Assembly: GCA_046565505.1 (NCBI GenBank)
Contig: JBKHYJ010000015.1
Coordinates: 13,600 to 77,599 of the forward strand
Source: Blastocatellia bacterium
GTDB taxonomy: Bacteria; Acidobacteriota; Blastocatellia; UBA7656
Direction of reading: 5' to 3'
DNA: 64,000 nt
The notes beneath the pieces were generated by a model. That model was not told where the DNA came from. It worked only from the letters and a program-made list of their open reading frames with translations, and did no database searches. Position 1 is the stretch's first letter. Each line of letters starts with the position of its first letter. Below, one piece after another: positions 21,973 to 46,942 of the stretch. The position numbers and the translations under genes are program-made.

Positions 21973-21995
21973 AACAATGAAAGGCGCGGTCATTT

Positions 21996-22463: not shown

Positions 22464-22526
22464 TTCTATGAATTGCAAAAACATCGCTCCCGCCCGCCCC
22501 AACTCAATAGCGTTTAGACTCGGCAG

Positions 22527-32200: not shown

Positions 32201-32431
32201 TCGCTCGGGCAGGAGCCCGCGCTCTCGGAGAACCGCAGCCGGAGCGGCATGCGTATCCTGCTTCAGAACGCGGCCCCCGATTTCGACATGTTGAGGATAT
32301 ACGGCCCGGAGCCTAACGCCGAGAAGATCGCGGCCGTGTGCAACCGCTACACGGGCAGCGACGGCTTCGAGCGGCTGTGCCTTCGATTCACGGGCAGAAG
32401 GGAAGCGGCGGCGGCCGTCTCCGCAGGTTAG
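29258..32431 (+). CDS. multidomain c-di-GMP protein: GAF - PAS - GGDEF - EAL - PilZ(-like) C-terminus
   Basis: An intact GGDEF motif (RLGGDEFAII), an intact EAL motif (GFEALLRWQHPE, plus the DDFGTGYSSL loop), a PAS region (DGLWDWNLETNEIRF) and a C-terminal PilZ signature (RRRCERFKL ... DVSRVGATLSLG). ORF 29171..32431, trimmed to the ATG at 29258. Confidence 0.85.
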   Translation: MTRAPMPPKEEARLEALRQYCIRDIKPEGPIDELARLAAQICAAPVALLGIVEADRVWYRSKSGTRSAAVDRDKAFCSWAILQPGLFVIKDASKDPRFKDNPLVAGEPKIRFYAAAPLVTPEGHALGTLCVIDYKPRELSAPQEMALRTLAGAAVHHLELRRHEKELQQAKADHKRALDALAASEERYNLIARSANDGLWDWNLETNEIRFCPRWKAMLGYKEDEIGARPDEWFNRVHPEDIEQVQEEVTAHLLGLRPQFHKEYRMRRQDGSYRWMLTRGMAVWDFDRQVYRMAGSVTDVTENKEAEQRLLHNATHDVLTGLPNRALFMDRLKLLFDRARQDGGNLFAVLFLDLDRFKIVNDSLGHQIGDQLLVCLARRLEASLRPGDIVARLGGDEFAIILDDLNHISDATQAAERIHKELCAPFNLSGHEVFASVSIGIAHSDTPYERPEDFIRNADTAMYRAKDQGRGRFELFDKGMHVRAVALLELETDLRRALARDEFCLHYQPIVSIENWRIVGFEALLRWQHPEQGFVSPTKFVPVAEETGLINQIGQWVFREACKQLRAWQIQFPSDPPLTVSVNLSAKQFSHPALIEEIEQALAETGVSPSSLKIEITEGAIIENVEVATDILRQLKALGIRISLDDFGTGYSSLSYLHRFPIDTLKIDRSFVTRMSMPKNSEIVRTIITLAVNLGMDVIAEGVETREQIILLTGLNCEYVQGFLLSKPVDGKTMMELIEQTYQKGLNEHAEAVSRAFASPAGLEKGLDYEKGLTLMTPDLPALEPEGPLEYQPGLAAANSSGYGLPESPAPRRQGPVRAAEQPVPVESPDRSMSKNRRRCERFKLSLPARVTGYDRKTGKWTETGQTADVSRVGATLSLGRRVRHGSIIHLTLPLPPKLRTHGHSESSYRVYAIVRRVEPPRDGIRMIGLEFVGENPPAGYQEKPWALFHSRRWTGAGRRREPREDKMEAVTIEYLTEGMESLGQEPALSENRSRSGMRILLQNAAPDFDMLRIYGPEPNAEKIAAVCNRYTGSDGFERLCLRFTGRREAAAAVSAG

Positions 32432-32804: not shown

Positions 32805-33665
32805 ATGGTTGAAAAAAAGAAGGAGACAGACTCCGCCCCCCACGGGCCGAGCCTCGACGAGCGCCAGGAGCGAATGGCCGAAGAGCGCAGCTCGGCCAAC
32901 GCGCACATCATTCACGAGGTGATACGAAAAGACGGCGAAGAAGAGTTACGCCGGACGACTTCAAGCCTGGCCTGGTCCGGCTTGGCCGCGGGACTCTCGA
33001 TGGGTTTTTCGCTCGTCGCCGAAGGCTTAATTCACTCGCACCTGCCGGACGCGCCCTGGCGGCCCATGCTCACGAAGCTCGGCTATAGCGTAGGGTTCCT
33101 CATCGTCGTGCTCGGGCGGCAGCAGTTGTTCACGGAGAACACGCTTACCCCCATAATACCGCTGCTCTCCCGGCGCGACGCCGCCACTTTCAAAAACGTC
33201 TTGAGGCTCTGGGGGGTCGTCCTCGCGGCCAACCTCGTGGGCGCCGCCCTGTTCGCGTGGGTGATAGGCCGCACGGAGGCCTTCAGCCCGGAGGCCCGCC
33301 ATAGCTTCGGCGAAATAGGGCGCGAGGCGATGGAAGGCGGCTTCGGAAAGATAATGCTGGAAGGCGTCTTCGCAGGGTGGCTGATAGCCCTGATGGTGTG
33401 GCTGCTCGCCGGCGCGAAATCGGGCCTCGTATCGATCATCGTCATAATAACATATCTTGTGGGGCTGGCAGGCTTGAGCCACATCATAGCCGGCTCAGTC
33501 GAGGCGATTTACCTCGTGGTGACCGGGGCCCAGTCCGCGGCCCGCGCCGCGCTCGGCTACATCATCCCCGCGCTTCTGGGCAACATCCTGGGCGGCGTGT
33601 CGCTCGTCGCCGCGCTCAACCATGCGCAGGTCGTCGCGGGGGGCGGCAAGAACGAAGAGGGCTGA
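32805..33665 (+). CDS. formate/nitrite transporter (FNT) family channel
   Basis: FNT signature LGRQQLFTENTL and six TM helices. ORF 32652..33665, trimmed to the Met before a charged N-terminus. Confidence 0.75.
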   Translation: MVEKKKETDSAPHGPSLDERQERMAEERSSANAHIIHEVIRKDGEEELRRTTSSLAWSGLAAGLSMGFSLVAEGLIHSHLPDAPWRPMLTKLGYSVGFLIVVLGRQQLFTENTLTPIIPLLSRRDAATFKNVLRLWGVVLAANLVGAALFAWVIGRTEAFSPEARHSFGEIGREAMEGGFGKIMLEGVFAGWLIALMVWLLAGAKSGLVSIIVIITYLVGLAGLSHIIAGSVEAIYLVVTGAQSAARAALGYIIPALLGNILGGVSLVAALNHAQVVAGGGKNEEG

Positions 33666-33914
33666 GGTACGCTCTTTGATACCCGGTCGTCGTGCGGTCG
33701 TGCTAGAGGCCAACAGCGGGTTCAGCGTCATGCCGCGCGCAGGTAGCGAGTCGAACTCGGCGCTCGCCCATGTCGCCGAGCGCGAATCGCGGGCGGATTA
33801 ACCACACACTTCAAAGCCATTATGTCCCAGCTATCTTGTCCCATCGGTCAGGCAATATTACGCATAAAGTCGGCATGGACGGCACAATGAGGTGTTGAAA
33901 TGCGTGTCTCACCC

Positions 33915-33930
33915 CGGCACAAAGGTTGCA
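33915..33930 (+). promoter_or_regulatory. sigma-54 (RpoN)-type -24/-12 promoter element upstream of xoxF
   Basis: cGGCACaaaggTTGCa matches TGGCAC-N5-TTGC(A/T) with the correct GG/GC spacing. It lies about 200 nt upstream of the xoxF start. Confidence 0.45.
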
Positions 33931-34126
33931 AAGCGCAAATCATGCATCACAACACTACTCTTGGTTTAATTCAGAGCGGTACGATACCTGGCGTATGAGC
34001 GCAGATATGGCTGACCGGCTGGCCGGGCGATTCGCGGTCAAAGTAAACATCTCCGTCCGAGGGTGATTCGCGCCGACGCATTGAATGATAGCCAAGGGGC
34101 CGGGTGTCTGCTATGAGAGCCGCGTT

Positions 34127-35998
34127 ATGAAAAGAATAAGGCTGGCTTCGTCTTTGACCTGTAATCTGTTCCTTATCACCGCAATCCTGTGCGCGCTTTT
34201 ATTGCCTATGGCGTGCTCGGACAAGCCTTCCGCGCAGCAGGTGCAACAGCAGCCGCCGACCGGCGCGCCCGCCGAGCAGCGGGCCGGGATGCCGCCCGGC
34301 TCGGCGGCCGAAGATGGCCAGTGGGTCATGCCCGCGAAGGATTACGCGAGCACGCGCTACAGCGGGCTTGACGAGATCAACGCGGATAACGTGAAGAACC
34401 TGAAAGTCGCCTGGACGTTTTCCACCGGGCTGGTGAACGGGCACGAGGCGGCCCCGCTGGTCGTGGGCGATACGATGTATGTCGTCACGCCGTTCCCGAA
34501 TTACCTCTACGCCCTGGACCTCACGCAGCCGGGCGCGCCCGTGAAGTGGAAGTACGACCCTAAGCCCGCCGCGGCCGCGCAAGGCGTCGCCTGTTGCGAC
34601 CTCGTCAACAGGGGGTGCGCCTACTCCAACGGCAAAATCTATTACAACACGCTCGATAATCACACGGTGTGCGTTGACGCGGGGACGGGCAAAGAAGTCT
34701 GGAAGACGAAACTGGGCGACATCAACCTGGGCGAGTCGATGACCATGGCGCCGCTCGTCGTGAAGGATAAGGTCCTGGTCGGCAACAGCGGCGGCGAATT
34801 CGGCGTGCGTGGCTGGCTCACGGCCGTCGACGCCAACACGGGCCAGATTGCCTGGAGGGCATACCACACGGGGCCCGATTCGGATTGCCTGATAGGGGCG
34901 AACTTCAGGCCGTATTACGAGCAGGACCGCGGGAAAGACCTGGGCGTTTCTTCCTGGCCCCCGGACGCCTGGAAGACGGGCGGGGCCGGGACATGGGGGT
35001 GGATTTCTTACGACCCGCAGATGAATCTGATCTACTACGGCACGGCCAACCCCGGCCCCTGGAACCCGGACCAGCGGCCCGGCGATAACAAGTGGACGTC
35101 GGGCATCTTCGCCCGCAACCCGGACAACGGCGAGGCCGTCTGGTTCTACCAGTGGAGCCCGCATGACTTGCACGATTACGATGGCATCAACGAGCAGATA
35201 CTGGTCGAGCTGCCTATCAACGGGCAGACTCGCAAAGTGCTGCTCAGGCCCGAGCGCAACGGTTACGTGTACGTGCTCGACCGCGCCACGGGCGAGGTGC
35301 TTTCGGCCACGCCTTTCGCCTACATCACTACGTCGAAAGGCGTGGACCTGAAGACGGGGCGGCTGATCTACAACGAAGAGACGAAGCCCGAAGTCGGCAA
35401 GGTGGTCCGCAACATCTGCCCCTTCTCGCCGGGGGCGAAGGACTGGCAGCCGTCCGCCTTCTCGCCCAGGACCGGGCTGCTCTACATCCCCGCGAGCAAC
35501 TGCTGCGAAGACGTCGAAAGCGTCGAGGCAAATTACATAGCGGGGACCCCGTTCGTCGGGATGAACGTGAAGATGTACGCGGGGCCGGGCGGCAACCGCG
35601 GCGAGTTCATCGGCTGGGACCCGGTGGGGCAGAAAAAAGTCTGGGGGATCAAAGAGAACTTCCCCGTCTGGAGCGGGGTGTGCGCGACGGCCGGCGACGT
35701 CGCTTTCTATGGCACTATGGACGGCTGGTTCAAGGCGGTCCATGCGCGCACGGGCGACGTGCTGTGGCAGTTCAAAGTCGGCTCGGGCATCATCGGCCAG
35801 CCGATCACCTACCGCGGGCCGGACGGCAAGCAGTACGTGGCGGTACTTTCCGGCGTCGGCGGGTGGCCCGGCGCGATTGTTTCCGTAGGGCTTGATCCGC
35901 GCGATCAGACGGCCGGCCTCGGGTTCGCGGCCGCGATGTCTGACCTGCCGGATTACTCGACCAGGGGCGGCATGCTTTACGTCTTCTCGCTGCCCTAG
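34127..35998 (+). CDS. xoxF: PQQ-dependent alcohol (methanol/ethanol) dehydrogenase, lanthanide-type (XoxF/ExaF/PedH-like)
   Basis: An eight-bladed PQQ propeller with the vicinal Cys pair (VACCDLVNRG), the catalytic Asp, and an additional Asp two residues later (HDLHDYDGIN, the DYD motif). Signal peptide. Confidence 0.85.
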   Translation: MKRIRLASSLTCNLFLITAILCALLLPMACSDKPSAQQVQQQPPTGAPAEQRAGMPPGSAAEDGQWVMPAKDYASTRYSGLDEINADNVKNLKVAWTFSTGLVNGHEAAPLVVGDTMYVVTPFPNYLYALDLTQPGAPVKWKYDPKPAAAAQGVACCDLVNRGCAYSNGKIYYNTLDNHTVCVDAGTGKEVWKTKLGDINLGESMTMAPLVVKDKVLVGNSGGEFGVRGWLTAVDANTGQIAWRAYHTGPDSDCLIGANFRPYYEQDRGKDLGVSSWPPDAWKTGGAGTWGWISYDPQMNLIYYGTANPGPWNPDQRPGDNKWTSGIFARNPDNGEAVWFYQWSPHDLHDYDGINEQILVELPINGQTRKVLLRPERNGYVYVLDRATGEVLSATPFAYITTSKGVDLKTGRLIYNEETKPEVGKVVRNICPFSPGAKDWQPSAFSPRTGLLYIPASNCCEDVESVEANYIAGTPFVGMNVKMYAGPGGNRGEFIGWDPVGQKKVWGIKENFPVWSGVCATAGDVAFYGTMDGWFKAVHARTGDVLWQFKVGSGIIGQPITYRGPDGKQYVAVLSGVGGWPGAIVSVGLDPRDQTAGLGFAAAMSDLPDYSTRGGMLYVFSLP

Positions 35999-36847
35999 AT
36001 GGGGTGGGACACATTGCCGTATAGCAACAGGCGGGCGCGGGCGGCCGTTTCGCTATTCGCGCTGACGACGTTCTTACTCTCTACCCCTTCGTGCGCTCAC
36101 AAAGGGCAGGTCGGCGCCGCGCGGCAGCTGCGCGTGTGCGCGGACCCGAATAACCTCCCGTTCTCCAACGAGCGGATGGAAGGGTTCGAGAACAAGATCG
36201 CCGACTTATTAGCTCATGAAATGAACGCGGGGGTCGCCTACACGTGGTGGGCGCAGCGGCGCGGCTTCATCAGGAACACGCTGAAGGACTGCAAGTGCGA
36301 CCTCGTGATGGGCGTGCCGAGCAGCTTCGAGCTTGCGCTCACGACCAGCCCCTACTACCGCTCCACCTACGTCTTCGTCTACAGGAAAGACCGCGGGGTG
36401 AGCGTGCGTTCTTTCGACGACCCCATCCTGCGCAAGGTCAAAGTGGGCGTCCAGATGATCGGCGACGATTACGCGAACGCGCCGCCCGCGCATGCGCTCT
36501 CGAAGCGCGGGATCATCCAGAATGTGAAGGGCTACACGGTGTATGGCGACTACTCGCAGGACAACCCCCCCGCGAGGATCATAGACGCGCTCATCAACGG
36601 CGAGATCGACGTGGCTATCGTGTGGGGGCCGCTCGCGGGCTACTTCGCGAAGCGCGCCGCCGTGCCGGTCGAGATCGTCCCGGTCTCGCCGCAGATCGAC
36701 CGGCCGTTCCTCCCCTTCGTCTATGACATCTCTATGGGGGTCAGGCGGGGGGAAGACGCATTCAAGGAGGAGCTGGAGAGCATACTAGAGCGGAAGCGGC
36801 CGGAGATCGAGAGCATACTCGACGAATACGGAGTGCCGCGACTTTAA
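35999..36847 (+). CDS. xoxJ: quinoprotein dehydrogenase-associated periplasmic substrate-binding protein (XoxJ/MxaJ-like, SBP family 3)
   Basis: Directly abuts the xoxF stop. It has a signal peptide and SBP3 fold motifs (RVCADPNNLPFSN ... IDVAIVWGPLAGYFA). Confidence 0.7.
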   Translation: MGWDTLPYSNRRARAAVSLFALTTFLLSTPSCAHKGQVGAARQLRVCADPNNLPFSNERMEGFENKIADLLAHEMNAGVAYTWWAQRRGFIRNTLKDCKCDLVMGVPSSFELALTTSPYYRSTYVFVYRKDRGVSVRSFDDPILRKVKVGVQMIGDDYANAPPAHALSKRGIIQNVKGYTVYGDYSQDNPPARIIDALINGEIDVAIVWGPLAGYFAKRAAVPVEIVPVSPQIDRPFLPFVYDISMGVRRGEDAFKEELESILERKRPEIESILDEYGVPRL

Positions 36848-37005
36848 GGGACGGTGAGCGCGGAACGATGAACGACGAGGCGGAAGACGATGAGCCGGGA
36901 GGGCGTGGGTTTCGAATCGCTAACCGCGAATCGGAAACAGGGGGGCCGCGGCCCCGCCATCCCGCTCCCGTCGCCGCGCTTTCGCCGTCCGATTCGGGGG
37001 AGAAG

Positions 37006-37560
37006 ATGCGTTTTACAAGAAGTGTCTCGGTAACGCTGTGCGCCCTCTCGGTCGCCCTGGCCTTCGCTTCCTGCGAGAGGGAGCGGCGCGAGTTCAAAGG
37101 GTCGCCCCCGCCGGTCACCCCGGTCAACGACGTGCGGCAGAGCGAGCTGCGGCCCGGGCCGCCCATGCCCGACAACAGGGCCGAAGCCCCCTACGTGGAC
37201 AACGCCTACGCCATGTCTGAAGGCAAGCGGCTCTTTGAATCGATGAACTGCGTGGGGTGCCACGCGCACGGGGGAGGGGCCATCGGGCCGCCGCTGATCG
37301 ACGAGAAGTGGATTTATGGCGCCAGCCCGGAGAACATCTACGCCACCATCGTGGAGGGCCGGCCCAACGGCATGCCCGCATTCGCGGACAAGATCCCGAA
37401 TGATCAAATCTGGCAGATCGTCGCCTACGTGCGCTCTCTGAATGGGATGGCGTCAAAGGACGCCGCCCCGAGCAGGAGCGATCACATGCAGGCAAAGCCC
37501 GCCGAGCAGTCCACCAAACAAGAGCCCCTCAGGACTCAGAGGGCCGAGCACAAGCCGTGA
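37006..37560 (+). CDS. lipoprotein class-I c-type cytochrome (candidate electron acceptor for the dehydrogenase / donor to caa3 oxidase)
   Basis: CVGCHAHGG heme-binding site with a downstream Met ligand (NGMPAF) and a lipobox (LAFASCE). ORF 36868..37560, trimmed to the ATG at 37006, which follows a GGGGGAGAAG RBS. Confidence 0.7.
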   Translation: MRFTRSVSVTLCALSVALAFASCERERREFKGSPPPVTPVNDVRQSELRPGPPMPDNRAEAPYVDNAYAMSEGKRLFESMNCVGCHAHGGGAIGPPLIDEKWIYGASPENIYATIVEGRPNGMPAFADKIPNDQIWQIVAYVRSLNGMASKDAAPSRSDHMQAKPAEQSTKQEPLRTQRAEHKP

Positions 37561-37563
37561 ACG

Positions 37564-38646
37564 TTGTCTGTGACCACAGATGAGCGGAGGGAAGAGATGA
37601 AGGCGGACGATCACAACTCATGGAGGGGCCGCGGCGGGCGGGCGGCTTGTGGGCCGGGGGCGACGCACCTGTGTTTACCGCCCGCGGCTTGCCTCCACCT
37701 GTGGCCCCACTCCGCGCTCGACCCCGCCGGGCCGCAGGCGGGCAGGATCAGCCACGTCTGGTGGGTGATGTTCGTCGTCAGCGTAATCGTTTTCGCCCTG
37801 GTGATCATGTTTTTATTCTTCGCCATCTACCGCGCGCGGCGCAGGGAAGCGCCCGCCGCCGAGCCGGAGGCCCGCCGAAAGATGACGCGGGCGGTGGTGG
37901 CCGCGACCGTTTTGACTACGGTCATCTTGTTCGGGCTTCTGGTCGATGATGTCATAGTGGGGAGGGCGCTATCTTCGCTGCCCGCCCATAACGACCTCGC
38001 AATCGAAGTGGTAGGGCACCAGTGGTGGTGGGAAGTGAGGTACCCTCATGAGGACCCCAGCCAGAGCTTCACGACGGCCAACGAGATACACATCCCCGTC
38101 GGCAGGTCCGTCATGCTGACGCTCACGTCGCGCGACGTTATTCACAGCTTCTGGGTGCCGAACCTGCACGGCAAGAAAGACCTCATCCCAGGTCACATGA
38201 ATACCATGTGGGTTCAAGCCGACAGCCCCGGCGTCTATCGCGGCCAGTGCGCGGAATTCTGCGGATACCAGCACGCGCACATGGCGCTGGTCGTCGTGGC
38301 CGAACCGGAAGAGCAATTCGACGCCTGGTACGACCGGCAGCGCTCGCCGGCGGTTCAGCCGACAGACCCTCAGCAGGCGAGGGGGCAACAGGTCTTCCTA
38401 TCGTCGCGCTGCGTCATGTGTCACAGGGTCGTGGGCACGCCGGCGGGCTCTATCGTCGGGCCCGACCTCACGCACGTCGGCGGCAGGCAAGAGATTGCCG
38501 CGGGCGCGTTACCTAACACGCGCGATCACCTGGCCAGGTGGGTCGTAGACTCGCAGGAGGTGAAGCCTGGCAACCGGATGCCCCCTAATAACTTCAGCCC
38601 CGAAGACCTCGACGCGATGCTAGCTTACCTGGAGGGCTTGAAATGA
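37564..38646 (+). CDS. coxB: cytochrome c oxidase subunit II with C-terminal cytochrome c domain (caa3-type)
   Basis: A CuA site (H...CAEFCGYQHAHM) and a C-terminal CVMCH heme c site. The true N-terminal start is uncertain. Confidence 0.8.
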   Translation: MSVTTDERREEMKADDHNSWRGRGGRAACGPGATHLCLPPAACLHLWPHSALDPAGPQAGRISHVWWVMFVVSVIVFALVIMFLFFAIYRARRREAPAAEPEARRKMTRAVVAATVLTTVILFGLLVDDVIVGRALSSLPAHNDLAIEVVGHQWWWEVRYPHEDPSQSFTTANEIHIPVGRSVMLTLTSRDVIHSFWVPNLHGKKDLIPGHMNTMWVQADSPGVYRGQCAEFCGYQHAHMALVVVAEPEEQFDAWYDRQRSPAVQPTDPQQARGQQVFLSSRCVMCHRVVGTPAGSIVGPDLTHVGGRQEIAAGALPNTRDHLARWVVDSQEVKPGNRMPPNNFSPEDLDAMLAYLEGLK

Positions 38647-40598
38647 GCCTGGACACGAAAGTCATGTCGCCCGACGAGGCGCGTGCGGCCGACCCGGCCG
38701 AAGAGCGCGAGCGCCGCAAGCTAGAAGAGACCTGGCGCACGCCCCCGGGGCTGCTCGGGTGGTTTATGACCACCAACCATAAGTCCATCGCCAAGCGCTA
38801 CATCGTCACCGCTTTCATCTTCTTTCTCCTCGGCGGGCTAGAGGCCGCGGCGATGCGCCTTCAGCTGTCGCGGCCCGAGAACCGATTCCTGGGGCCGGAC
38901 CTCTACAATCAGATTTTCAGCATGCATGGCACGACGATGATGTTCCTGTTCGCGGTCCCGATCATGGAGGCGATGGGGCTCTACTTCGTGCCGCTGATGA
39001 TAGGGACGCGCAACGTCTCCTTCCCGCGCATGAACGCCTATGGCTATTACGCCTACCTGATCGGCGGGCTGTTGCTGTACGTCGGCTTCGTGCTCGGGAT
39101 AGGGGTGGACACGGGCTGGTTCAGCTACGTGCCGCTCTCGGGGCCGGATTTTTCGCCCGGCAAGAGGGTCGATTTCTGGGCGCAGATGATAACCTTCACG
39201 GAGATAGCGGCGCTGGTGTCGGCCGTGGAGATAATCGTCACGGTGTTCAAGCAGCGGGCGCCCGGCATGTCGCTCAATCGCGTCCCGCTGTTCGTGTGGG
39301 CGATGGTCGTGACATCTTTCATGGTGTTGTTCGCCATGCCCGCCATCATGCTCGCAAGCTCGATGCTGGCGATGGACAGGCTCGTCAGCACACACTTCTT
39401 CAACCCGGCCGAAGGCGGCGACGCGATACTGTGGCAGCACCTCTTCTGGTTCTTCGGCCACCCGGAAGTCTACATCATCTTCATACCCGCGACGGGGATG
39501 GTTTCGACCATCCTGCCCGCGTTCACGCGCCGCGGCGTCTTCGGGTACACGGCCCTCGTGCTGTCGCTCGTGGCGACGGGGTTCATAGGCTTCGGCCTGT
39601 GGGTTCACCACATGTTCGCCACGGACGTGCCGCAGCTCGGGCAGAGCTTCTTTACGGCCGCCAGCGTAATGATCGCCGTCCCGAGCGGGATACAAATCTT
39701 CTGCTGGATAGCGACGCTGTGGGGCGGGAAGCTTCACCTGAAAACGCCCCTGCTGTTCGTGCTCGGGTTCGTCGCGCTGTTCGTGCTGGGCGGGCTGACG
39801 GGCGTGATGCTGGCGGCGGTGCCGCTGGACCTCCAGGTGCACGACACGTATTTCGTGGTCGCGCACTTCCACTACGTGCTGATAGGGGGCGCGGTCTTCC
39901 CGCTCTTCGGGGCTTTCTATTACTGGTTCCCGAAGTGGACGGGCCGCATGCTCGACGAGCGAATGGGCAGGTGGAATTTCTGGCTGATGTTCATCGGGTT
40001 CAACGTCACTTTCTTCCCCATGCACCAGCTCGGGCTCAGGGGAATGCCCCGGCGGGTCTACACCTACCTCGAAGGGAACGGGTGGGACGGCATGAACCTG
40101 ATCGCGTCAGCGGGCGCGGCCATCATCGCCGCGAGCGTGCTGGTTTTTCTCATCAATGTTTTCAAGAGCCGCGGCGGCGGCCTCGCGGCGGGGGGGGACC
40201 CCTGGGGTTCCGACACGCTCGAATGGGCCACGGCCTCGCCCCCGCCGGACTATAACTTCCAATACATCCCGACGGTGAACGGGCGCGAGGCGCTGTGGAC
40301 CCGCGACGAGGAGACGCCGGTCGTCACAGGGCTCCGCAGCGAGTGCCGGGAGGTGCTGATTACCAAGACGCTCGACGCGGAGCCCGACCACAGGCACGAG
40401 CTGCCCGGCCCGTCCATCTGGCCGCTGGTGCTCGCGCTCGCGACAGGCTTCACGTTCATCGCCGGCATATTCACCCCGTGGGCCTTCCCCATCGGCGCGG
40501 TCTTGAGCCTGGCGGCCCTCGTCGGGTGGTTCTGGTCAGGCAACGAAGCGAAGAATTACCCGCCGCACGAAGGCGGGCCATCGGAGAGCCCGACATGA
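38643..40598 (+). CDS. ctaD: cytochrome c oxidase subunit I (heme-copper oxidase, type A) with C-terminal extension
   Basis: GHPEVYIIFIPATGMVS, WVHHMF and HFHYVLIGG motifs. Its start overlaps the coxB stop (ATGA). Confidence 0.9.
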   Translation: MSLDTKVMSPDEARAADPAEERERRKLEETWRTPPGLLGWFMTTNHKSIAKRYIVTAFIFFLLGGLEAAAMRLQLSRPENRFLGPDLYNQIFSMHGTTMMFLFAVPIMEAMGLYFVPLMIGTRNVSFPRMNAYGYYAYLIGGLLLYVGFVLGIGVDTGWFSYVPLSGPDFSPGKRVDFWAQMITFTEIAALVSAVEIIVTVFKQRAPGMSLNRVPLFVWAMVVTSFMVLFAMPAIMLASSMLAMDRLVSTHFFNPAEGGDAILWQHLFWFFGHPEVYIIFIPATGMVSTILPAFTRRGVFGYTALVLSLVATGFIGFGLWVHHMFATDVPQLGQSFFTAASVMIAVPSGIQIFCWIATLWGGKLHLKTPLLFVLGFVALFVLGGLTGVMLAAVPLDLQVHDTYFVVAHFHYVLIGGAVFPLFGAFYYWFPKWTGRMLDERMGRWNFWLMFIGFNVTFFPMHQLGLRGMPRRVYTYLEGNGWDGMNLIASAGAAIIAASVLVFLINVFKSRGGGLAAGGDPWGSDTLEWATASPPPDYNFQYIPTVNGREALWTRDEETPVVTGLRSECREVLITKTLDAEPDHRHELPGPSIWPLVLALATGFTFIAGIFTPWAFPIGAVLSLAALVGWFWSGNEAKNYPPHEGGPSESPT

Positions 40599-41203
40599 AG
40601 CAGAGGCCGGCCATAGACGTTTCACACTTGCCGCTTCACGCCTACGGCAGCCACACGACGCTCTGGTGGGGCAACGTGCTGATGTGCGTCATCGAAGGGA
40701 CGATGTTCGCGATAGTCGTCGCGTCCTACTTTTACATCCGCAAGGTGTTCCCCCACTGGCCGCCGCTTAACACGCCGTTCCCGGACCTGCTGCCCGGGAC
40801 CGTTAATACTGTCATCCTGCTTGTGAGCTGTGCGCCGATGGTGTGGGTGCACAGGCTCGCCGTGGGTGAGGGGAGCCAGCGCGCGATTCAGGCCGGGGTC
40901 TTGATATGCATCGCCCTCATGCTGACGTCAATCGCGCTGCGCTGGTTCGAGTTCCCGCGGATGTTTTCTCAGTGGGACTCGAACGCTTATGGGTCGATCA
41001 CCTGGACGGCGCTCGGCTTACACCTCGGCCACCTGCTTGCCGCCACGGCGGAAGCCTCCGTGCTCGCCGCATGGATGTTCACGCATGAGCTTGACGAGAA
41101 GCACAGGCTGGACCTCAACATGCTGGCTCTCTACTGGTATTTCGTGGTCGGCGCGTGGGCTATACTTTACCCCGTCCTCTATTTCGGGCCTCGCCTGCTG
41201 TAG
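40595..41203 (+). CDS. cytochrome c oxidase subunit III-family membrane protein
   Basis: Its start overlaps the ctaD stop (ATGA at 40595-40598). It has 5 TM helices. The HAYGSHTTLWWGNVLMCVIEG pattern is typical of subunit III. Confidence 0.65.
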   Translation: MKQRPAIDVSHLPLHAYGSHTTLWWGNVLMCVIEGTMFAIVVASYFYIRKVFPHWPPLNTPFPDLLPGTVNTVILLVSCAPMVWVHRLAVGEGSQRAIQAGVLICIALMLTSIALRWFEFPRMFSQWDSNAYGSITWTALGLHLGHLLAATAEASVLAAWMFTHELDEKHRLDLNMLALYWYFVVGAWAILYPVLYFGPRLL

Positions 41204-41222
41204 CGCCGCGGAGGGATCAGAA

Positions 41223-41600
41223 GTGACGGCCGAGACGAAAAAAGATACCTCGAATGGCGGAAGGCTCTTGAACCTGTGGGCGGGGCTGTTCGCCGCGCCT
41301 GTCGCATGGCTGGTCGAGCTACAGCTCCACTACATGCTGGTCCCGTGGGCCTGCTCGACCGGGCGTCACTTCGTCTTGCACCTGATCACAGTCGCGGCCC
41401 TGCTGGTCGCCGTGGTAGGGGGCGTACTGGCCTGGCAGGGTTGGCGGCAGTCCGGGCCTGGGTGGCCCGATGGCTCCGGCGGCCCCGCGCCGCGCAGCCG
41501 GTTTATGGCCGTAACGGGGCTGCTGCTCAGCGCGCTCTTTTTCTTCGTAATACTGGCGCAGGGAATCCCCATCTTCGTCTTGAACCCATGTCAGCAGTGA
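41223..41600 (+). CDS. small 3-TM membrane protein, possible caa3 oxidase subunit IV-like
   Basis: A GTG start follows a GGAGGGA RBS. The call rests on position within the oxidase operon and on hydrophobicity only. Confidence 0.35.
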   Translation: MTAETKKDTSNGGRLLNLWAGLFAAPVAWLVELQLHYMLVPWACSTGRHFVLHLITVAALLVAVVGGVLAWQGWRQSGPGWPDGSGGPAPRSRFMAVTGLLLSALFFFVILAQGIPIFVLNPCQQ

Positions 41601-42556
41601 CCAGGAAAATGCCGCGCCCTTCGCCCCGCCGGCCGGCGCTCGCCCTCTCCTTCGTTGCGGCGCTCGCGGGCGACGCGCTGGCGCACGGGGGCAAGCCGCA
41701 CGGGCCGGGCGACCTCCTGACGACCTGGGGCCTGGAGCCGGTCGTGCTGGTGGGGCTTGCGCTCGCCGGCTGGCTTTACGTACGAGGCGTGAGGCGGCTG
41801 TGGCGGGAGTCTTCCGCGGGCCTCGGCATTCGCAGGTGGGAGGCCGCGTGTTACGCGGCCGGGTGGCTCGCGCTGTTCGTCGCGCTCGTGTCCCCGCTCC
41901 ACCCGATGGGGAGCGTGCTGTTCTCCGCGCACATGACTCAGCATGAAGTGCTGATGCTGGTCGCCGCGCCGCTACTGGTGCTGGGCCGCCCCCTGATCGC
42001 TTACCTGTGGGCGCTGCCCGTGCGGTGGCGGCGCAAGGCGGGCCGTGTCGGGAAAGTCGGCTGGGTGGGGGCGAGCTGGCATGCCGTCACGAACCCGCTC
42101 GCGGCATGGGCGATTCACGCGGTGGCGCTGTGGGTGTGGCATGCGCCGGCGCTCTTTCAGGCGACGCTCAAAAGCGAGCTGGTCCATACAACACAGCACC
42201 TGACCTTTCTACTTTCCGCGCTGCTGTTCTGGTGGGCGCTCATACACGGGCGCCACGCGCTGATGGGGTACGGCGCGGCGGTGCTCTACATGTTCACCAC
42301 GTCCGTACACAGCGGGGTCCTGGGGGCGCTGCTGACGTTCGCCTCTTCGGTGTGGTATCCGGCTTACTCGGCGACGACCGAGTCGTGGGGGCTCACGCCC
42401 CTCGAAGACCAGCAGCTCGGCGGGCTGATAATGTGGGTGCCGGCGGGCCTGGTCTACCTCTTCGCGGGCCTCGCGCTGTTCGCCGGGTGGCTGCGCGAAT
42501 CGGAGCGCAGGGTCTTGAGGCGCGAGGGCCGGCCCGGGTCATACAGTGAGGGTTAA
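41588..42556 (+). CDS. ctaG: cytochrome c oxidase assembly factor CtaG (caa3-type, PF09678-like)
   Basis: A multi-TM protein with a conserved HMTQHEVLM segment, downstream of the oxidase subunits. ORF 41276..42556, trimmed to the ATG at 41588. Confidence 0.6.
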   Translation: MSAVTRKMPRPSPRRPALALSFVAALAGDALAHGGKPHGPGDLLTTWGLEPVVLVGLALAGWLYVRGVRRLWRESSAGLGIRRWEAACYAAGWLALFVALVSPLHPMGSVLFSAHMTQHEVLMLVAAPLLVLGRPLIAYLWALPVRWRRKAGRVGKVGWVGASWHAVTNPLAAWAIHAVALWVWHAPALFQATLKSELVHTTQHLTFLLSALLFWWALIHGRHALMGYGAAVLYMFTTSVHSGVLGALLTFASSVWYPAYSATTESWGLTPLEDQQLGGLIMWVPAGLVYLFAGLALFAGWLRESERRVLRREGRPGSYSEG

Positions 42557-42562
42557 AACAAA

Positions 42563-43567
42563 ATGCGAGTGACGCGCCGATTCGTCCTGGCCTGCTGCCT
42601 TGCGGCGGCCGTCTGTGCACAAGCCCTGCCGGCCGCCGGCCGTCAGAGGGCGCCCGCGTTCGCCTACGTGAGCAACGAGCGGGATGGGACGGTAACGGTC
42701 ATCAACACGGCTACCGACGCGGTGGTCTCTACGATCCGCGTGGGCGGGCGGCTGCGCGGCATACAACTGAGCCCGAACGGCAAGAGGCTGTACGTCGCGA
42801 TGACTTACCCGTCCAATCGCAGGGAGAGCGAGACCGACAAGATCGTCGCCATCGACGCGGCGAGCGGCAGCGTGATCGCGAAGTACGACGCGGGCAGCGA
42901 CCCCGAACAGTTCGCGGTCAGCCGGGATGGGATGCGGCTCTACACTTCAAACGAGGACGCGGGGACGGCGTCGGTGACGGACCTGCGTACGGGCCGCGTC
43001 ATCGCCACGCATGTGGTCGGGATAGAGCCCGAGGGGGTCGCGCTCAGCCCGGACGGCCGCTGGGTCTACGTGACGGCCGAGAGCAGCAGCAACGTCACGG
43101 TGATAGACACGCGGACGAACAAGGTGAAGGCCACGTTCCCCGTAGGCGCGCGGCCGCGTTGCGCCGCCTTCTCGCCCGACGGGCTGCGCGCCTACGTGAC
43201 GGCCGAGAATGGCGGGACGGTGTCGGTCGTCAACACGGCTACGCACAAGGTTATCGACACGATCGAATTGCCGCGCGGGCAGGTCAAACCCATGGGCATA
43301 GCGGTGTCGCGCGATGGCAGGCGCATCTACGTCACCAATGGGCGGGGGAATTCGGTGGCGGTCATCGACAGCAGGAGCCGCAAGGTCATGGCGATGGTCC
43401 CGGTGTCGCAGCGCCCCTGGGGCATCGCCATCACCCCCGACGGCAGGAAGATTTACACGGCCAACGGGCTGTCGAACGACGTGGCCGTTATAGACGCGGC
43501 CACCAACAGAGTAATCACGACCGTCAAGGCGGGTGACGGGCCGTGGGGGATCGCGATGAGCCATTGA
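42563..43567 (+). CDS. YVTN-family beta-propeller repeat protein (PQQ-dependent catabolism-associated beta-propeller type)
   Basis: A signal peptide plus seven repeats of about 40 aa ending in YV(T/A) (AYVSNERDGTVTVINTAT..., LYVAMT..., VYVTAESSSNVTVIDTRT..., AYVTAENGGTVSVVNTAT..., IYVTNGRGNSVAVIDSRS..., IYTANGLSNDVAVIDAAT). Confidence 0.75.
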   Translation: MRVTRRFVLACCLAAAVCAQALPAAGRQRAPAFAYVSNERDGTVTVINTATDAVVSTIRVGGRLRGIQLSPNGKRLYVAMTYPSNRRESETDKIVAIDAASGSVIAKYDAGSDPEQFAVSRDGMRLYTSNEDAGTASVTDLRTGRVIATHVVGIEPEGVALSPDGRWVYVTAESSSNVTVIDTRTNKVKATFPVGARPRCAAFSPDGLRAYVTAENGGTVSVVNTATHKVIDTIELPRGQVKPMGIAVSRDGRRIYVTNGRGNSVAVIDSRSRKVMAMVPVSQRPWGIAITPDGRKIYTANGLSNDVAVIDAATNRVITTVKAGDGPWGIAMSH

Positions 43568-43596
43568 CGCTCCGCGTCGCCGGCCGAGGGGGCACT

Positions 43597-44145
43597 GTGT
43601 CAAGAAATAACGGGCCTTGGGTCATAAACGAAACGACTCTGAAATACCGGAACGATTTCATAGAAGTTAATGAAGACCGCGTCATCAGGCCCGACGGCGA
43701 GCCCGGCACTTACGCGACGGTTGACATGAAGGCGGGGCTTGCCGTCCTTCCCGTGGGTGAAGACCGCAGCGTATACCTGACCAGACAGTTCCGCTACGCC
43801 ATAGGGAGGGAGAGCATAGAGGTCGTAGGCGGGGCCATAGATGAGGGCGAGGACGCGGAGGCGGCGGCGAGGCGGGAGCTTCGAGAAGAGGTCGGGATCG
43901 AGGCCGGGGAGTTGACCCCGATGGGCGTTATCAACATAGACACTTCAATAGTTGACGGGGCCGTGAGTCTGTTCCTCGCCAGGCGGTTGAGATTTACCGA
44001 GCCGGACCGGGAAGGCACCGAAGTCATAAAGCCCCTGAGGGTGACTCTCGACGAAGCCGTGAATATGGTTATGAGCGGAGAGATAAACCAGGGCACGAGC
44101 TGCGTCCTGATACTGAAGGCCGGCAATTACCTGGGCGCGCGGTAG
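43597..44145 (+). CDS. NUDIX hydrolase
   Basis: Nudix box GGAIDEGEDAEAAARRELREEVGIEAG. ORF 43543..44145; a GTG at 43597 follows GAGGGGG and avoids overlapping the upstream stop, but the start is uncertain. Confidence 0.65.
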   Translation: MSRNNGPWVINETTLKYRNDFIEVNEDRVIRPDGEPGTYATVDMKAGLAVLPVGEDRSVYLTRQFRYAIGRESIEVVGGAIDEGEDAEAAARRELREEVGIEAGELTPMGVINIDTSIVDGAVSLFLARRLRFTEPDREGTEVIKPLRVTLDEAVNMVMSGEINQGTSCVLILKAGNYLGAR

Positions 44146-44266
44146 CGGGCGTTCTTGTCCTGGTTTTAATTCGGCGGCTTTTAACCCTTTGAGGTGTTTA
44201 TTACTTACCCTGCTATGCCCTCTATCGCCGTGCGCGGCAGATTGATCGCGGGCGAAAGCCCGCGCC

Positions 44267-46942
44267 TCAGACGGCCCTCCCGGCCGCCACGTCCATCCTG
44301 ATGTTATCATCCCTAAGCGTCGGCACGGGTGCCGCGTCGTAGTGCTTGAGCAGCTCCAATATCGGCTCGAGCTTGTCATAAAATACGACGACGATCTCGC
44401 CCTCATCCATGCTCCGAATCGCGTATTCGATGGCCTCCGTTTCATTAAGCACGATGGAGCATTCGCGCTCGGGCGCTTCGCCCTTGACCGCCTCGCATAG
44501 CAGCCCGGCGACCTCCCCCTTGGCTCGGCCGCGCAGGTCCTTGTCTTCCTTAATGATGATGCGGTGGAGGCCCTTTGCCGCCACCTGGCCCGCCTGCCTG
44601 ATGATGGAGTCCGCCCTGTCGCCGGGCACGCCTATCACGCCCGTGACTTTTCGCCCGCGCCAGAGCGACGCCATGCGACAGACGGATTTAAACGCGTCGG
44701 CGTTGTGGCCGTAGTCCAGCATGAGGTGGCCGGGGCCCACGCGGAAGACGTTGGCCCTGCCGGGGTTCTGCGCGTCGTTCCTGAAGCCCGCGATTGCGGA
44801 AGCCGCCTGCTTTCTTGTCACGCCGTAGGCGCGGCTGGCCGCCATCGCCGCGAGCACGTTCGCGACCTGAAATTCGGCCGTGCCCTGCATCGTCACGGGA
44901 ACGTCCGACACCTGGATGATCCTGTGCTCCGCCCTGTGCGCCGACTCTATGATCCAGCCATTCTTAACGAAATATGCGGTGCCGCCCGCCGCCGTGTGCC
45001 TCTTAATCAAGAGGTGATTATTGCGCGTCGAAAAATAGACCACATGTTTTTTGATGGCGTTAACGCGGGGGTCTTCGGCCAGCCGCGCGAGGCGTTCGTC
45101 GTCGGCGTTGAGCACCAGCGTCCCGCCTTCTCTCACGCGCTCGGCCACGAGCGACTTTATGCGCACCAGGTCGTCCACGGATTTGATCCCGTCCTGCCCT
45201 ATGTGGTCCGGCTGTACGTTGGTCATCACGGATACGTCCGACCAGTCGTAGCCGAGCCCCCTGCGCGCGATGCCTCCGCGCGCGGTCTCAAGCACGGCCA
45301 CCTCGACGGCCGGGTCGCACAGAATCGTCCTCGCCGAGTGCGGGCCGGTCGTGTCGCCTTTAACGACGCGCTCCCCGGCGATGTATATGCCATCGGTGGT
45401 CGTCACCCCGACCGCGCGCCCCGACTCGGCTATGACATGAGCGATCATGCGGGTCACGGTCGTCTTGCCGTTCGTGCCCGTTATCGAAATGATGGGGATT
45501 CTCGCGGGCTCGCCCGGCGGGTATAGCATGTCCACGATGGCGGCGGCCACGTCGCGGCTGCGCCCTTCGCTCGGGTAATGATGCATGCGCAGCCCCGGGG
45601 AGGCGTTGACCTCTATCACGCCGCCGCCTTCTTCCGGCGGCTCGATAATGTCTCTCAGGACCAGGTCCACGCCGCAGATGTCCAGGCCGATGACTCGCGC
45701 GACCCTCTCGCAGAGCCGCCTGACCTCCGGGTGAACGACGCCCGTAACGTCTTTGGCCGTGCCGCCCGTCGAGAGGTTTATCCCCTCCCTCAGGAACACC
45801 ACCTCTTCTTTCTTCGGGATGTGGTCCAGGCTGAGCCCCGCCTTACGCAGGTGCGCCAGCAGTATCGGGTCCGCCTTGATGCGCGTGAGCGGCTTTTCGT
45901 GCCCATCGCCGCGGCGCGGGTCTTCATTCGTAATGTCGATCAATTGCTTTACCGTGTGCCGCCCATCGCCGGTGACGTGAGCGGGAAGCCGCTCGCTGGC
46001 GGCGATCATCTCGCCGCCGACCACTACCACCCTGTAGTTCCGCCCGACGAATAATTCCTCGACCAGGACGCTCGGGGATATCTCGCGCGCGATCCTGTAG
46101 GCCTGGGCCACTTCCCCCGGCGTCGTGAGGTTGAGCGAAACGCCCTTCCCCTGGCACCCGTCGAGCGGCTTCACGACGACGGGTGCGCCGAGAATTCCCA
46201 GGGCCCGTAACGCCTCGGCCTCCGACCCGGCCACCATGCCGCGCGGGACCGGGATCGAAGCTGCCTCCAGAATGGACTTGGTCAATTCCTTGTTCCCGGC
46301 TATCTCCATCGCGATTGCGCTCGTCTGCTCTGACATGGCCGCCTGTATGTACTTGCGGTTCTTCCCGTAGCCGAGTTGCACGAGGCTGTCGCCGTTGACG
46401 CGGACCCACGGGATGCCGCGCCGCGCGGCGGCGTCTACAATCGCTTTCGTGGTCGGGCCGAACTCCGTCCTGGCGACGATGCGGCGGGCCTCTTCCACTT
46501 TTTCGTCGAGCGCGAACGGCTCGCCCTTTATGACGGCTTCGACGAGCCTGACGGCGGCCTCAAGGAGGTGGCGCGTGCCTTTCTCCGCCTCGTACTCCAC
46601 GACGACGTTATAGCAGCAGGGCTCGTCGGCCTCACTGGTCCTGCTGTGACGCGCGGCGATACCCGCGCGGCCGGCCATCTCCACCGCGACATGCTCGACG
46701 ACATGGCCCACGTGCGTGCCTCCGTTGAGCAGCGCGACGAAGCCGCCCGGCTCGCCCGTGTCGCACCGGTGGTCGGCGAGGCCCGGCAGCAGGTCGAGCA
46801 GGCGCGCGACGAACCCATCAATCTCGTGGCTCTGTCTTTCGCACAGGTCGCCGAGGCAGAGCCGCATCACGAGCGCGGGTTTATGACTGTAGATATTCGG
46901 GCCGGCCAGCGTCCGCATCCTTTCGATCCTCATCGCGATCAC
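44267..46942 (-). CDS. cphA: cyanophycin synthetase
   Basis: 891 aa. An N-terminal ATP-grasp domain and a C-terminal Mur-ligase domain (ISITGTNGKTT). Long stretches closely resemble cyanobacterial CphA (MRIERMRTLAGPNIYS..., VLETARGGI..., DYGHNADA...). Confidence 0.9.
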   Translation of the reverse strand: MIAMRIERMRTLAGPNIYSHKPALVMRLCLGDLCERQSHEIDGFVARLLDLLPGLADHRCDTGEPGGFVALLNGGTHVGHVVEHVAVEMAGRAGIAARHSRTSEADEPCCYNVVVEYEAEKGTRHLLEAAVRLVEAVIKGEPFALDEKVEEARRIVARTEFGPTTKAIVDAAARRGIPWVRVNGDSLVQLGYGKNRKYIQAAMSEQTSAIAMEIAGNKELTKSILEAASIPVPRGMVAGSEAEALRALGILGAPVVVKPLDGCQGKGVSLNLTTPGEVAQAYRIAREISPSVLVEELFVGRNYRVVVVGGEMIAASERLPAHVTGDGRHTVKQLIDITNEDPRRGDGHEKPLTRIKADPILLAHLRKAGLSLDHIPKKEEVVFLREGINLSTGGTAKDVTGVVHPEVRRLCERVARVIGLDICGVDLVLRDIIEPPEEGGGVIEVNASPGLRMHHYPSEGRSRDVAAAIVDMLYPPGEPARIPIISITGTNGKTTVTRMIAHVIAESGRAVGVTTTDGIYIAGERVVKGDTTGPHSARTILCDPAVEVAVLETARGGIARRGLGYDWSDVSVMTNVQPDHIGQDGIKSVDDLVRIKSLVAERVREGGTLVLNADDERLARLAEDPRVNAIKKHVVYFSTRNNHLLIKRHTAAGGTAYFVKNGWIIESAHRAEHRIIQVSDVPVTMQGTAEFQVANVLAAMAASRAYGVTRKQAASAIAGFRNDAQNPGRANVFRVGPGHLMLDYGHNADAFKSVCRMASLWRGRKVTGVIGVPGDRADSIIRQAGQVAAKGLHRIIIKEDKDLRGRAKGEVAGLLCEAVKGEAPERECSIVLNETEAIEYAIRSMDEGEIVVVFYDKLEPILELLKHYDAAPVPTLRDDNIRMDVAAGRAV

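Follow-up and report, generated by a model that had tools for sequence, protein, structure and literature searches.

A putative XoxF3-type alcohol oxidation cluster with its own atypical A-family terminal oxidase in a Blastocatellia bacterium

We analyzed a 64-kb stretch of DNA (the window) from a Blastocatellia bacterium, corresponding to positions 13,600 to 77,599 of contig JBKHYJ010000015.1 in assembly GCA_046565505.1. The subject of the analysis is a block of 11 co-oriented genes on the + strand at 32805-44145, delineated from open reading frame (ORF) calls and by direct reading of the DNA. An original prediction, made from the sequence alone, had described this block as a pyrroloquinoline quinone (PQQ)-dependent alcohol dehydrogenase combined with a complete terminal oxidase into one alcohol-to-oxygen electron transport chain. 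The labels it gave to ten of the genes (FNT channel, XoxF, XoxJ, cytochrome c, CoxB, CtaD, CoxC, CtaG, YVTN propeller and NUDIX hydrolase) were borne out by hidden Markov model (HMM) searches. The features of the block are compiled in Table 1.

Table 1. Features of the gene block in the window, and positions of a second xoxF-linked oxidase type in other genomes
Feature	Position	Strand	Details
FNT-family channel	32805..33665	+	286 aa; in-frame ATG further upstream at 32652 possible
Sigma-54-type -24/-12 promoter element CGGCACAAAGGTTGCA	33915..33930	+	~200 nt 5' of xoxF start
xoxF, lanthanide-type PQQ methanol dehydrogenase, putative XoxF3 kind	34127..35998	+	623 aa; TIGR03075
xoxJ-like periplasmic binding protein	35999..36847	+	282 aa; TIGR03871
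Monohaem class I cytochrome c, XoxG position	37006..37560	+	184 aa; predicted lipoprotein
coxB, oxidase subunit II, CuA and C-terminal fused cytochrome c (caa3 type)	37597..38646	+	TIGR02866, PF00116, PF00034
ctaD, A-family subunit I	38643..40598	+	651 aa; TIGR02891
coxC, short subunit III	40595..41203	+	202 aa; PF00510
125-aa three-helix membrane protein	41223..41600	+	Conserved; no family match
ctaG, Bacillus-type caa3 oxidase assembly factor	41588..42556	+	PF09678
YVTN beta-propeller, PQQ-dependent-catabolism-associated kind	42563..43567	+	TIGR03866
NUDIX hydrolase	43564..44145	+	PF00293
Weak terminator-like hairpin and T-run	44147..44170	+	5-pair stem, consensus match only; block end, before convergent cyanophycin synthetase gene
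Second oxidase type directly 5' of xoxF	L013:1506-3353, L059:6764-8506, L063:2871-4718, L066:6751-8607

The genes were originally thought to be separated throughout by tiny gaps or overlaps. The common orientation holds for all 11 genes and the tight packing for ten of them, but the FNT gene is set apart from xoxF by a spacer of 461 nt (33666-34126), or of 419 nt if xoxF starts at ATG 34085. The specific junctions that had been pointed out are all seen in the DNA: the xoxF stop codon (TAG, 35996-35998) directly abuts the xoxJ ATG at 35999, and ATGA overlaps join coxB to ctaD (38643-38646) and ctaD to coxC (40595-40598). The largest gap from xoxF to the NUDIX gene, 158 nt, lies between xoxJ and the cytochrome start at 37006. 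The remaining junctions fall between a 13-nt overlap (small ORF/ctaG) and a 36-nt gap (cytochrome to coxB, counted from ATG 37597, which is preceded by a ribosome-binding site). The small ORF follows coxC after 19 nt, the YVTN gene follows ctaG after 6 nt, and the NUDIX gene overlaps the YVTN gene by 4 nt (TTG start at 43564) or 25 nt (GTG start at 43543). A scan for consensus promoters and terminators found nothing convincing within the block and just the weak hairpin after the NUDIX gene, and an Rfam scan of the entire window returned no RNA family at its gathering score.

The assignment of XoxF is robust at the family level. The protein passes the TIGR03075 model (643 bits; cut-off 480), and its start codon agrees with relatives of the same length. 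Among solved enzymes it scores 677 bits against the SolV XoxF (4MAE, an XoxF2), 557-587 bits against XoxF5/XoxF1 structures and 473-557 bits against MxaF, and only 286-355 bits against ethanol and quinohaemoprotein alcohol dehydrogenases. The lanthanide-coordinating Asp of the D-Y-D motif is present, HDLHDYDGINE in the window corresponding to wDyDGvne in 4MAE. Also kept are the vicinal Cys-Cys pair and the metal ligands Glu, Asn and Asp (GE, NPGPWN and VACCD), in columns that are invariant in 26 relatives. The closest relatives come from Blastocatellia and Pyrinomonadaceae, and close relatives are named lanthanide-dependent methanol dehydrogenase by both NCBI and JGI. For three further proteins the original prediction had itself named the profiles to be searched, and all three matched: XoxJ with TIGR03871 (315.2 bits; cut-off 212), the YVTN propeller, marginally, with TIGR03866 (294.8 bits; cut-off 287.3) and CtaG with PF09678 (211 bits; cut-off 27.7). 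The narrower equivalogs stay out of reach, as XoxJ scores 156 bits against the MoxJ model TIGR03870 (cut-off 258) and CtaG 74 bits against the Bacillus model TIGR02737 (cut-off 279). Since the oxidase genes lie between xoxF and the YVTN gene, the oxidase is embedded within the quinoprotein gene set.

To see whether this arrangement recurs, we used an alignment of 26 XoxF sequences to collect 80 genome loci, in which XoxF is 61-73% identical to that of the window, and mapped the window proteins onto them by tblastn. In 58 of the 63 loci having at least 4.5 kb of downstream sequence, ctaD follows xoxF in the same orientation at a distance of no more than 5 kb; of the other five, three have an oxidase directly upstream of xoxF and the remaining two lack one. 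Among the 57 longest loci, genes downstream on the same strand include xoxJ (48 loci), the cytochrome (54), coxB (52), ctaD (53), coxC (52) and ctaG (48). The YVTN gene is less regular (downstream in 13 of these loci, anywhere at the locus in 20), and the small ORF was detected in 27 loci, a count limited by the sensitivity of tblastn for a short and divergent sequence. The core order xoxF-xoxJ-cytc-coxB-ctaD-coxC-small ORF-ctaG, which close relatives share with the window, is thus strongly conserved across at least seven phyla. The acidobacterial hosts belong to Pyrinomonadaceae, Blastocatellia, Terriglobales, Thermoanaerobaculia, Vicinamibacterales and Bryobacteraceae. Other hosts are found in Gemmatimonadota, Binatia, Rokubacteria, Verrucomicrobia, Myxococcota (Polyangiaceae) and the Alpha-, Beta- and Gammaproteobacteria (Mesorhizobium, Azospirillum, Sphingomonas, Microvirga, Ramlibacter, Inquilinus, Dyella and a metagenome-assembled genome of Methylococcaceae). 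Because of this synteny, the adjacency represents a conserved module rather than a coincidence. Together with the HMM scores, it upholds the proposal that the dehydrogenase, its partner protein, the c-type cytochrome, the oxidase, CtaG and the YVTN propeller make up one functional block. Pairwise identities of XoxF also correlate across loci with those of CtaD and of CoxB (r = 0.72-0.75, Mantel p = 0.001, n = 22). Co-inheritance would explain this correlation, but shared vertical descent would do so as well, and we give it little weight.

The cytochrome c between xoxJ and coxB matches PF13442 (58 bits) and PF00034 (41 bits). Its start at 37006, preceded by the ribosome-binding site GGGGGAGAAG, is supported by the lengths of the relatives' proteins (181-184 aa). 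The nearest solved relatives are CcoP domains, with cytochrome cL reaching 40 bits, and the protein is XoxG-like by position only. It had been described as soluble. This description has to be given up, as the protein is a predicted lipoprotein: its lipobox (…LAFASC-ERERRE…) is followed by a linker of about 45 residues, and 77 of 79 loci from various phyla encode a lipobox with a subsequent C-x-R-E-x-R pattern. The two loci missing it (L059 and L075) are both among the five in which no window-type oxidase is found downstream of xoxF. The electron-carrying cytochrome is therefore probably tethered to the membrane, judging by this signal. XoxF likewise has a predicted lipoprotein signal, in which Cys30, invariant in the 26 relatives, precedes a low-complexity linker of about 30 residues. 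More generally, the signal peptides of XoxF (34127-34220), XoxJ (35999-36095) and the cytochrome (37006-37075) all end in Cys, and the linkers of XoxF and the cytochrome are both long and of low complexity. This suggests that the entire periplasmic part might be lipid-anchored in the window's lineage.

The oxidase can be assigned to the A family and the caa3 type by its subunit I model, six His ligands, cross-linked Tyr, CuA site and fused haem c. CoxB matches TIGR02866 (192 bits; cut-off 148), as well as PF00116 and, at its C-terminus, PF00034; both the CuA motif (CAEFCGYQHAHM) and a haem motif (CVMCH) can be read in it, and over its full length it matches subunit II of the caa3 oxidase from Thermus best (2YEV_B, 192 bits). 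CtaD matches TIGR02891 (720 bits; cut-off 671) and carries a C-terminal extension of about 100 residues with two helices, weakly similar to PF12270 (27.7 bits). CoxC covers only positions 68-255 of PF00510 (53 bits), and its top NCBIfam match is CyoC. An extended subunit I accompanied by a short subunit III resembles the arrangement in bo3 oxidases.

In order to examine the proton pathways, we aligned CtaD with CtaDs of solved structure and with bovine COX1; the bovine sequence was verified for the expected residue at 23 named positions. All counts below refer to 61 xoxF-linked CtaDs and to bovine numbering. The catalytic core is intact. H61, H240, H290, H291, H376, H378 and Y244 are conserved in 61/61, Ser255 and Arg438/439 are kept, Glu242 is present in 60/61, and the window CtaD retains the cross-linked Tyr, every ligand of the haems and of CuB, and the A1 signature GHPEVY. 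The proton channels are a different matter. The canonical K-channel comprises Lys354, Thr351, Ser291 and Tyr280 (Paracoccus denitrificans numbering). Of these, the window oxidase keeps the Ser and the Tyr, but the Lys (Lys319) is replaced by Gln351, as in all 61 linked CtaDs, and the Thr (Thr316) by Ser348. The Glu of subunit II at the channel entrance is absent as well, its place in the window CoxB being taken by Ala or Val. The canonical D-channel comprises Asp124, Asn113, Asn131, Asn199, Ser134, Ser193 and Glu278 (P. denitrificans numbering, PMC3084760). Here the window oxidase retains the Glu and one Asn, and the Ser residues have become Gly and Ala (Ala at both Ser156 and Ser157). The entrance Asp91 is Asn124 (non-acidic in 54/61) and is preceded by Arg (R123 in the window) instead of Pro in 61/61. 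Asn80 is Leu113 (Ile, Val or Leu in 57/61), Asn163 is Glu196 (Glu in 37/61), and the position of Ser157 is Ala or Gly in 55/61. Two proton channels define the A family of haem-copper oxidases (PMC3084760, PMC11214002). Since it is precisely these two channels that are altered, the xoxF-linked lineage is an atypical member of its family. We did not find a xoxF-linked oxidase devoid of K- and D-channel residues in the literature searched, though specialised oxidase papers could hold it.

The association also appears when viewed from the oxidase side. In a reciprocal scan of metagenome contigs with the CtaD alignment (80 CtaD loci), none of the 46 loci with the canonical signature N-D-N-N-E-T-K has xoxF, while xoxF lies upstream in seven of the eight window-type (Gln) loci with at least 2.4 kb of upstream sequence. 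A third type, also with Gln and having the signature [VI]D[SG]EE[ST]Q, has no xoxF at the locus. There is, in addition, a second xoxF-linked type, with GHPWVY (Glu242 replaced by Trp), the K-channel Lys replaced by Ala, Gln or Thr, and the D-channel entrance kept. Its gene order is ctaG-coxB-ctaD-coxC-xoxF-cytc-(YVTN)-xoxJ, and in the reciprocal scan xoxF is downstream in four of its five loci (L103, L104, L106, L108 and L109). Upstream of another A-type oxidase without the Lys (Lys replaced by Leu; L105:6152-11881) lie genes encoding a gluconate-2-dehydrogenase subunit 3 and a GMC oxidoreductase, a flavoprotein. This locus gives a hint that oxidases of this kind may also serve other periplasmic dehydrogenases.

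The 125-aa protein keeps its place between coxC and ctaG in relatives. It has two invariant Cys residues (C44 and C123), both periplasmic according to a charge-based topology guess, and conserved RSRF and ILAQGIP motifs in the alignment. Its AlphaFold2 model consists of three helices (mean confidence score, pLDDT, of 82). It is 100% identical to a protein from an NCBI metagenome-assembled genome labelled 'Blastocatellia bacterium'. No Pfam or NCBIfam entry matches it even at E = 10, all 16 homologues are annotated as hypothetical or unnamed, and a Foldseek search against the PDB returned only generic helical bundles at E > 0.6. Neither the label 'subunit IV' nor the 'vesicle-transport-like' label found in the literature gains support from the fold search. 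In other oxidase operons, ctaF, cyoD and qoxD lie after subunit III. By its sequence and position the protein is plausibly a fourth oxidase subunit or a copper-handling factor.

Upstream of xoxF, the element CGGCACAAAGGTTGCA differs by one mismatch from the sigma-54 consensus TGGCAC-N5-TTGCW, with its GG and GC 12 nt apart. In the four closest Blastocatellia loci, CGGCAYA-N4-TTGCA is invariant at -120 to -200 in intergenic DNA that is otherwise 52% identical. Overall, 13 of 79 xoxF upstream regions contain sigma-54-type matches, against a background of 0.026 per 450 nt. One of the loci (L081) encodes, divergently and upstream of xoxF, a response regulator of the sigma-54 activator type together with two PAS histidine kinases. 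No protein with the GAFTGA motif of sigma-54 activators is encoded in the window. These observations suggest that the putative operon is under enhancer-dependent control in the window's lineage. A second conserved block (33826-33870, ATCTTGTCCCA…GGCAATATTACGCA), about 50-90 nt 5' of the sigma-54 element and common to L082 and L084, could be an activator binding site. Further upstream, at 29171-32431, the window encodes a 1086-aa GAF-PAS-GGDEF-EAL-PilZ protein. Its homologue adjoins xoxF in L082/L083, and a similar GAF/PAS protein occurs upstream in L084; the protein may be a regulatory partner of the cluster. At the opposite end, the NUDIX gene (PF00293, 50 bits) had been counted as a cluster member, but no homologue is linked to the cluster in any of the 80 loci, close relatives included. 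It is probably co-transcribed in the window without being a conserved member.

A link between oxidase genes and xoxF3 was already mentioned in a 2014 mini-review, reportedly by Keltjens et al. According to PMC10875860, which cites it, that mini-review pointed out a small number of xoxF3 operons containing cox and ctaG. XoxF3 systems were then described in Acidobacteria, Gemmatimonadetes and Verrucomicrobia, with Group 4 Blastocatellia among the hosts (Voutsinos et al., BMC Biol 2024, PMC10875860). The components listed there are CoxI-III, CtaG, CytC, XoxG, XoxJ, a small hypothetical protein and YncE, and YncE-type propellers, often with NRAMP, are reported near XoxF3 systems. The methanol dehydrogenase cluster genes listed in a figure legend of a 2024 review likewise include cox and CtaG as well as a sigma-54-specific regulator and a GGDEF protein (PMC11845868). 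The block in the window is most probably a copy of this published system, and the existence of the cluster is not new. The view that the arrangement is unusual for Acidobacteriota is accordingly mistaken: it is the usual XoxF3 layout, published, drawn in review figures and present in cultured Mesorhizobium and Methylocella. Compared with the systems of Voutsinos et al., the window lacks the NRAMP module and has FNT upstream and NUDIX downstream; proton-channel residues of the oxidase, lipoprotein signals and the sigma-54 promoter are not discussed in that study. In a 77%-identical relative (L084, 18627-20935), ctaG is followed by a 140-aa protein without known function, an NRAMP transporter and two small unknown proteins, and the window has the YVTN and NUDIX genes in place of this module.

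Among cultured bacteria, plasmid pMESCI01 of Mesorhizobium ciceri WSM1271 has the order of the window (xoxF, substrate-binding protein, c-type cytochrome, coxB, ctaD, cox3, hypothetical, assembly protein), with a XoxF 70% identical to that of the window. On plasmid p1 of Methylocella tundrae T4, genes for a XoxF (67% identical), a substrate-binding protein and a cytochrome occur together with ctaG, and inverted coxB-ctaD-cox3 genes adjoin them. The paper on strain T4 names one of its clusters XoxF3 (PMC11102522). These RefSeq clusters of cultured bacteria differ from the window in being proteobacterial and plasmid-borne, in having an extra c-type cytochrome at the end and in lacking the YVTN, FNT and NUDIX genes. 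The canonical xoxFGJ (XoxF5, Methylobacterium extorquens) and mxa clusters share with the window a PQQ dehydrogenase, a dedicated c-type cytochrome, a J-type protein and the lanthanide-coordinating Asp. However, they encode no terminal oxidase alongside (PMC11845868), and the window's cytochrome is not an equivalog of cL/MoxG. The Pseudomonas ped/exa clusters share the TIGR03866 and TIGR03871 models, which are generally associated with PQQ and quinoprotein dehydrogenases; unlike them, the window has a dehydrogenase of the methanol type, no ABC transporter genes and the oxidase within the cluster. With the Thermus thermophilus caa3 oxidase (2YEV) the window oxidase has in common a subunit II in which CuA is fused with cytochrome c, and with other A-family oxidases the haem/CuB ligands, the cross-linked Tyr and GHPEVY of subunit I. 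It departs from both in the changes of Lys to Gln, Asp to Asn and Asn80 to Leu, in the missing subunit II Glu, in the two-helix extension of subunit I and in the short subunit III.

Taken together, the data lead us to interpret the block from 33915 to ~44145 as a Blastocatellia XoxF3 system, that is, a self-contained branch of aerobic respiration in which methanol or a similar small alcohol or aldehyde is oxidised outside the cytoplasmic membrane and the electrons pass straight to O2. We estimate the probability of this reading at roughly 80%. The sequence itself shows the residues, gene order, packing, promoter motif and lipoprotein signal, whereas the electron path is deduced from established knowledge of chains made up of methanol dehydrogenase, cytochrome cL and aa3 oxidase. 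Transcription would start at the sigma-54-type promoter and proceed through the ten packed genes. PQQ-containing XoxF3 would oxidise the alcohol, with XoxJ aiding its maturation or activation, and would pass electrons to the adjacent, probably membrane-tethered, monohaem cytochrome c. From there they would move to the cytochrome c domain of CoxB, CuA, haem a, the haem a3/CuB center and finally O2, bypassing the bc1 complex. CtaG, and perhaps also the 125-aa protein with its two Cys residues, would assemble the copper centers, and the YVTN propeller would be an accessory. The energy yield may differ from that of ordinary aa3/caa3 oxidases, because the lineage that travels with xoxF3 has remodelled both proton-uptake pathways.

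Several points weigh against this reading or limit it. The window XoxF is tentatively placed in the XoxF3 clade by gene context and the pattern of similarity. We infer it because the context is identical to that of published XoxF3 systems and because the protein is 67% identical to the M. tundrae T4 plasmid XoxF, which by its position fitting the locus in the paper is probably the XoxF3 of that strain. No XoxF3 enzyme has been biochemically characterised (PMC10875860), and the XoxF3 of Methylocella silvestris was barely expressed and not lanthanide-responsive (PMC9291206); substrate and metal dependence are for these reasons predictions. The cytochrome scores 45 bits against the MoxG equivalog TIGR03872 (cut-off 148). 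Genes for PQQ biosynthesis, formaldehyde or formate oxidation and C1 assimilation are all missing from the window. The operon structure is deduced from the DNA, and the missing K- and D-channel residues cast doubt on a normal proton-pumping function of the oxidase. Finally, in one locus (L107) a window-type oxidase has no xoxF within 10 kb and is preceded by a LytS/LytTR two-component system. Together with the third Gln type, this locus rules out the rule of thumb that a Gln-type oxidase always implies xoxF.

Explanations differ on how the oxidase couples electron transfer to proton movement. One view, to which we give less than even odds, regards the xoxF3-linked enzyme as a distinct A-family lineage that has given up both canonical proton-uptake pathways. 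With the lipid-anchored cytochrome c (and XoxF, in Acidobacteria), it might form a membrane-surface 'alcohol oxidase' module whose energy coupling is unlike that of textbook aa3/caa3 oxidases, and it may exemplify a general class of oxidases, each dedicated to a periplasmic dehydrogenase. The pathway itself may have been remodelled, either with Ser and Gln acting as in the Lys-free channel of B-type oxidases or with Glu196 as an entrance, or coupling may simply be weak. Another, similarly tentative explanation makes the linked oxidase a low-coupling or non-pumping electron sink for periplasmic dehydrogenases, perhaps with a non-canonical proton route, which disposes of electrons from trace alcohols or harvests them cheaply. 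The near-uniform changes at positions 319, 91, 80 and 157, the Ala or Val at the subunit II entrance, the replacement of Glu242 and Lys319 in the second xoxF-linked type and the K-less oxidase following flavoprotein genes in L105 all fit this explanation. It is harder to reconcile with the conservation of Glu242, Ser255, Tyr244 and Arg438/439, and the Glu common at the Asn163 position could be a new entry point; moreover, it is drawn from sequence comparison. B-family oxidases work with a polar, Lys-free analogue of the K-channel (PMC3084760, PMC11214002). A different uncertainty concerns the substrate, which might be ethanol, another alcohol or an aldehyde rather than methanol, so that the cluster would not belong to C1 metabolism. 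XoxF-type enzymes in general accept several alcohols as well as formaldehyde, and such breadth, the NCBIfam descriptions of TIGR03866 and TIGR03871, which are general to PQQ and quinoprotein dehydrogenases, and the missing C1 assimilation and dissimilation genes agree with such a substrate, as does the fact that XoxF3 enzymes are unassayed (PMC10875860). We nevertheless consider it rather unlikely, given that the window protein scores far better against solved XoxF and MxaF than against ethanol and quinohaemoprotein enzymes, and given the names that NCBI and JGI assign to close relatives.

Originally the FNT channel was taken as part of the unit, and it could be thought to move formate, the product of four-electron oxidation of methanol by XoxF. 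The gene is adjacent and co-oriented in the window, and six of the 80 loci (Gemmatimonadota, Longimicrobium, Thermoanaerobaculia and Acidobacteriales) have a homologue with 41-56% identity no more than 10 kb from xoxF, at varying positions; in two of them (L045 and L062) the homologue is on the same strand, after ctaG. As a genome typically has one or two FNT genes, 6/80 would be above general expectation. There may thus be a loose, facultative link in other lineages. For the window, however, the functional role is unlikely. FNT would belong to a separate transcription unit, because the conserved promoter lies in the spacer between FNT and xoxF. Furthermore, in the 86%-identical relative (L082/L083) the upstream synteny is the same (Ser/Thr kinase, aminotransferase, CTP-transferase-like and GAF-PAS-GGDEF-EAL-PilZ proteins), yet FNT is absent and 275 nt separate the GGDEF-EAL gene from xoxF. 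Nor is FNT found in the Pyrinomonadaceae loci having 10 kb of upstream sequence. The protein matches PF01226 (172 bits) and retains the central His and Thr, but it scores 52.5 bits against the FocA equivalog TIGR04060 (cut-off 290) and 35-38 bits at best against solved FNTs. Since it is distant from every characterised FNT, 'formate' is a family label only. As to the possibility that dehydrogenase and oxidase genes are neighbors by coincidence, it is effectively refuted by synteny in 58/63 loci and at least seven phyla, by the reciprocal association and by the overlapping start and stop codons.

The window thus provides a clean and complete Blastocatellia example of the XoxF3 cluster. The comparison with other loci delimits the unit, which extends from xoxF to ctaG plus the YVTN gene, with a predicted sigma-54 promoter in the window's lineage and with FNT and NUDIX outside. 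In one study of metagenomes from weathered granite and soil, XoxF3 outnumbered the other types of methanol dehydrogenase (340 of 411 sequences, PMC10875860). The Gln-for-Lys signature and the degraded D-channel bear on how much energy soil bacteria can gain from trace methanol, and they provide a simple sequence marker of the xoxF3 respiratory module in metagenomes.

Several other features of the window are of note. Converging on the end of the cluster, the - strand at 44267-47811 encodes a cyanophycin synthetase (891 aa) and an S51 cyanophycinase-type peptidase. An 800-aa fusion at 51100-53502 combines a beta-lactamase/transpeptidase-like domain with an M15 D-Ala-D-Ala dipeptidase domain, and a D-Ala-D-Ala ligase gene is found together with an arginase-family gene at 16069-18162. 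The region 18000-24000 has a GC content of 0.565-0.577 compared with ~0.63 elsewhere, with apparently non-coding gaps (~20751-21976 and ~23994-24881) next to a Crp-like regulator.

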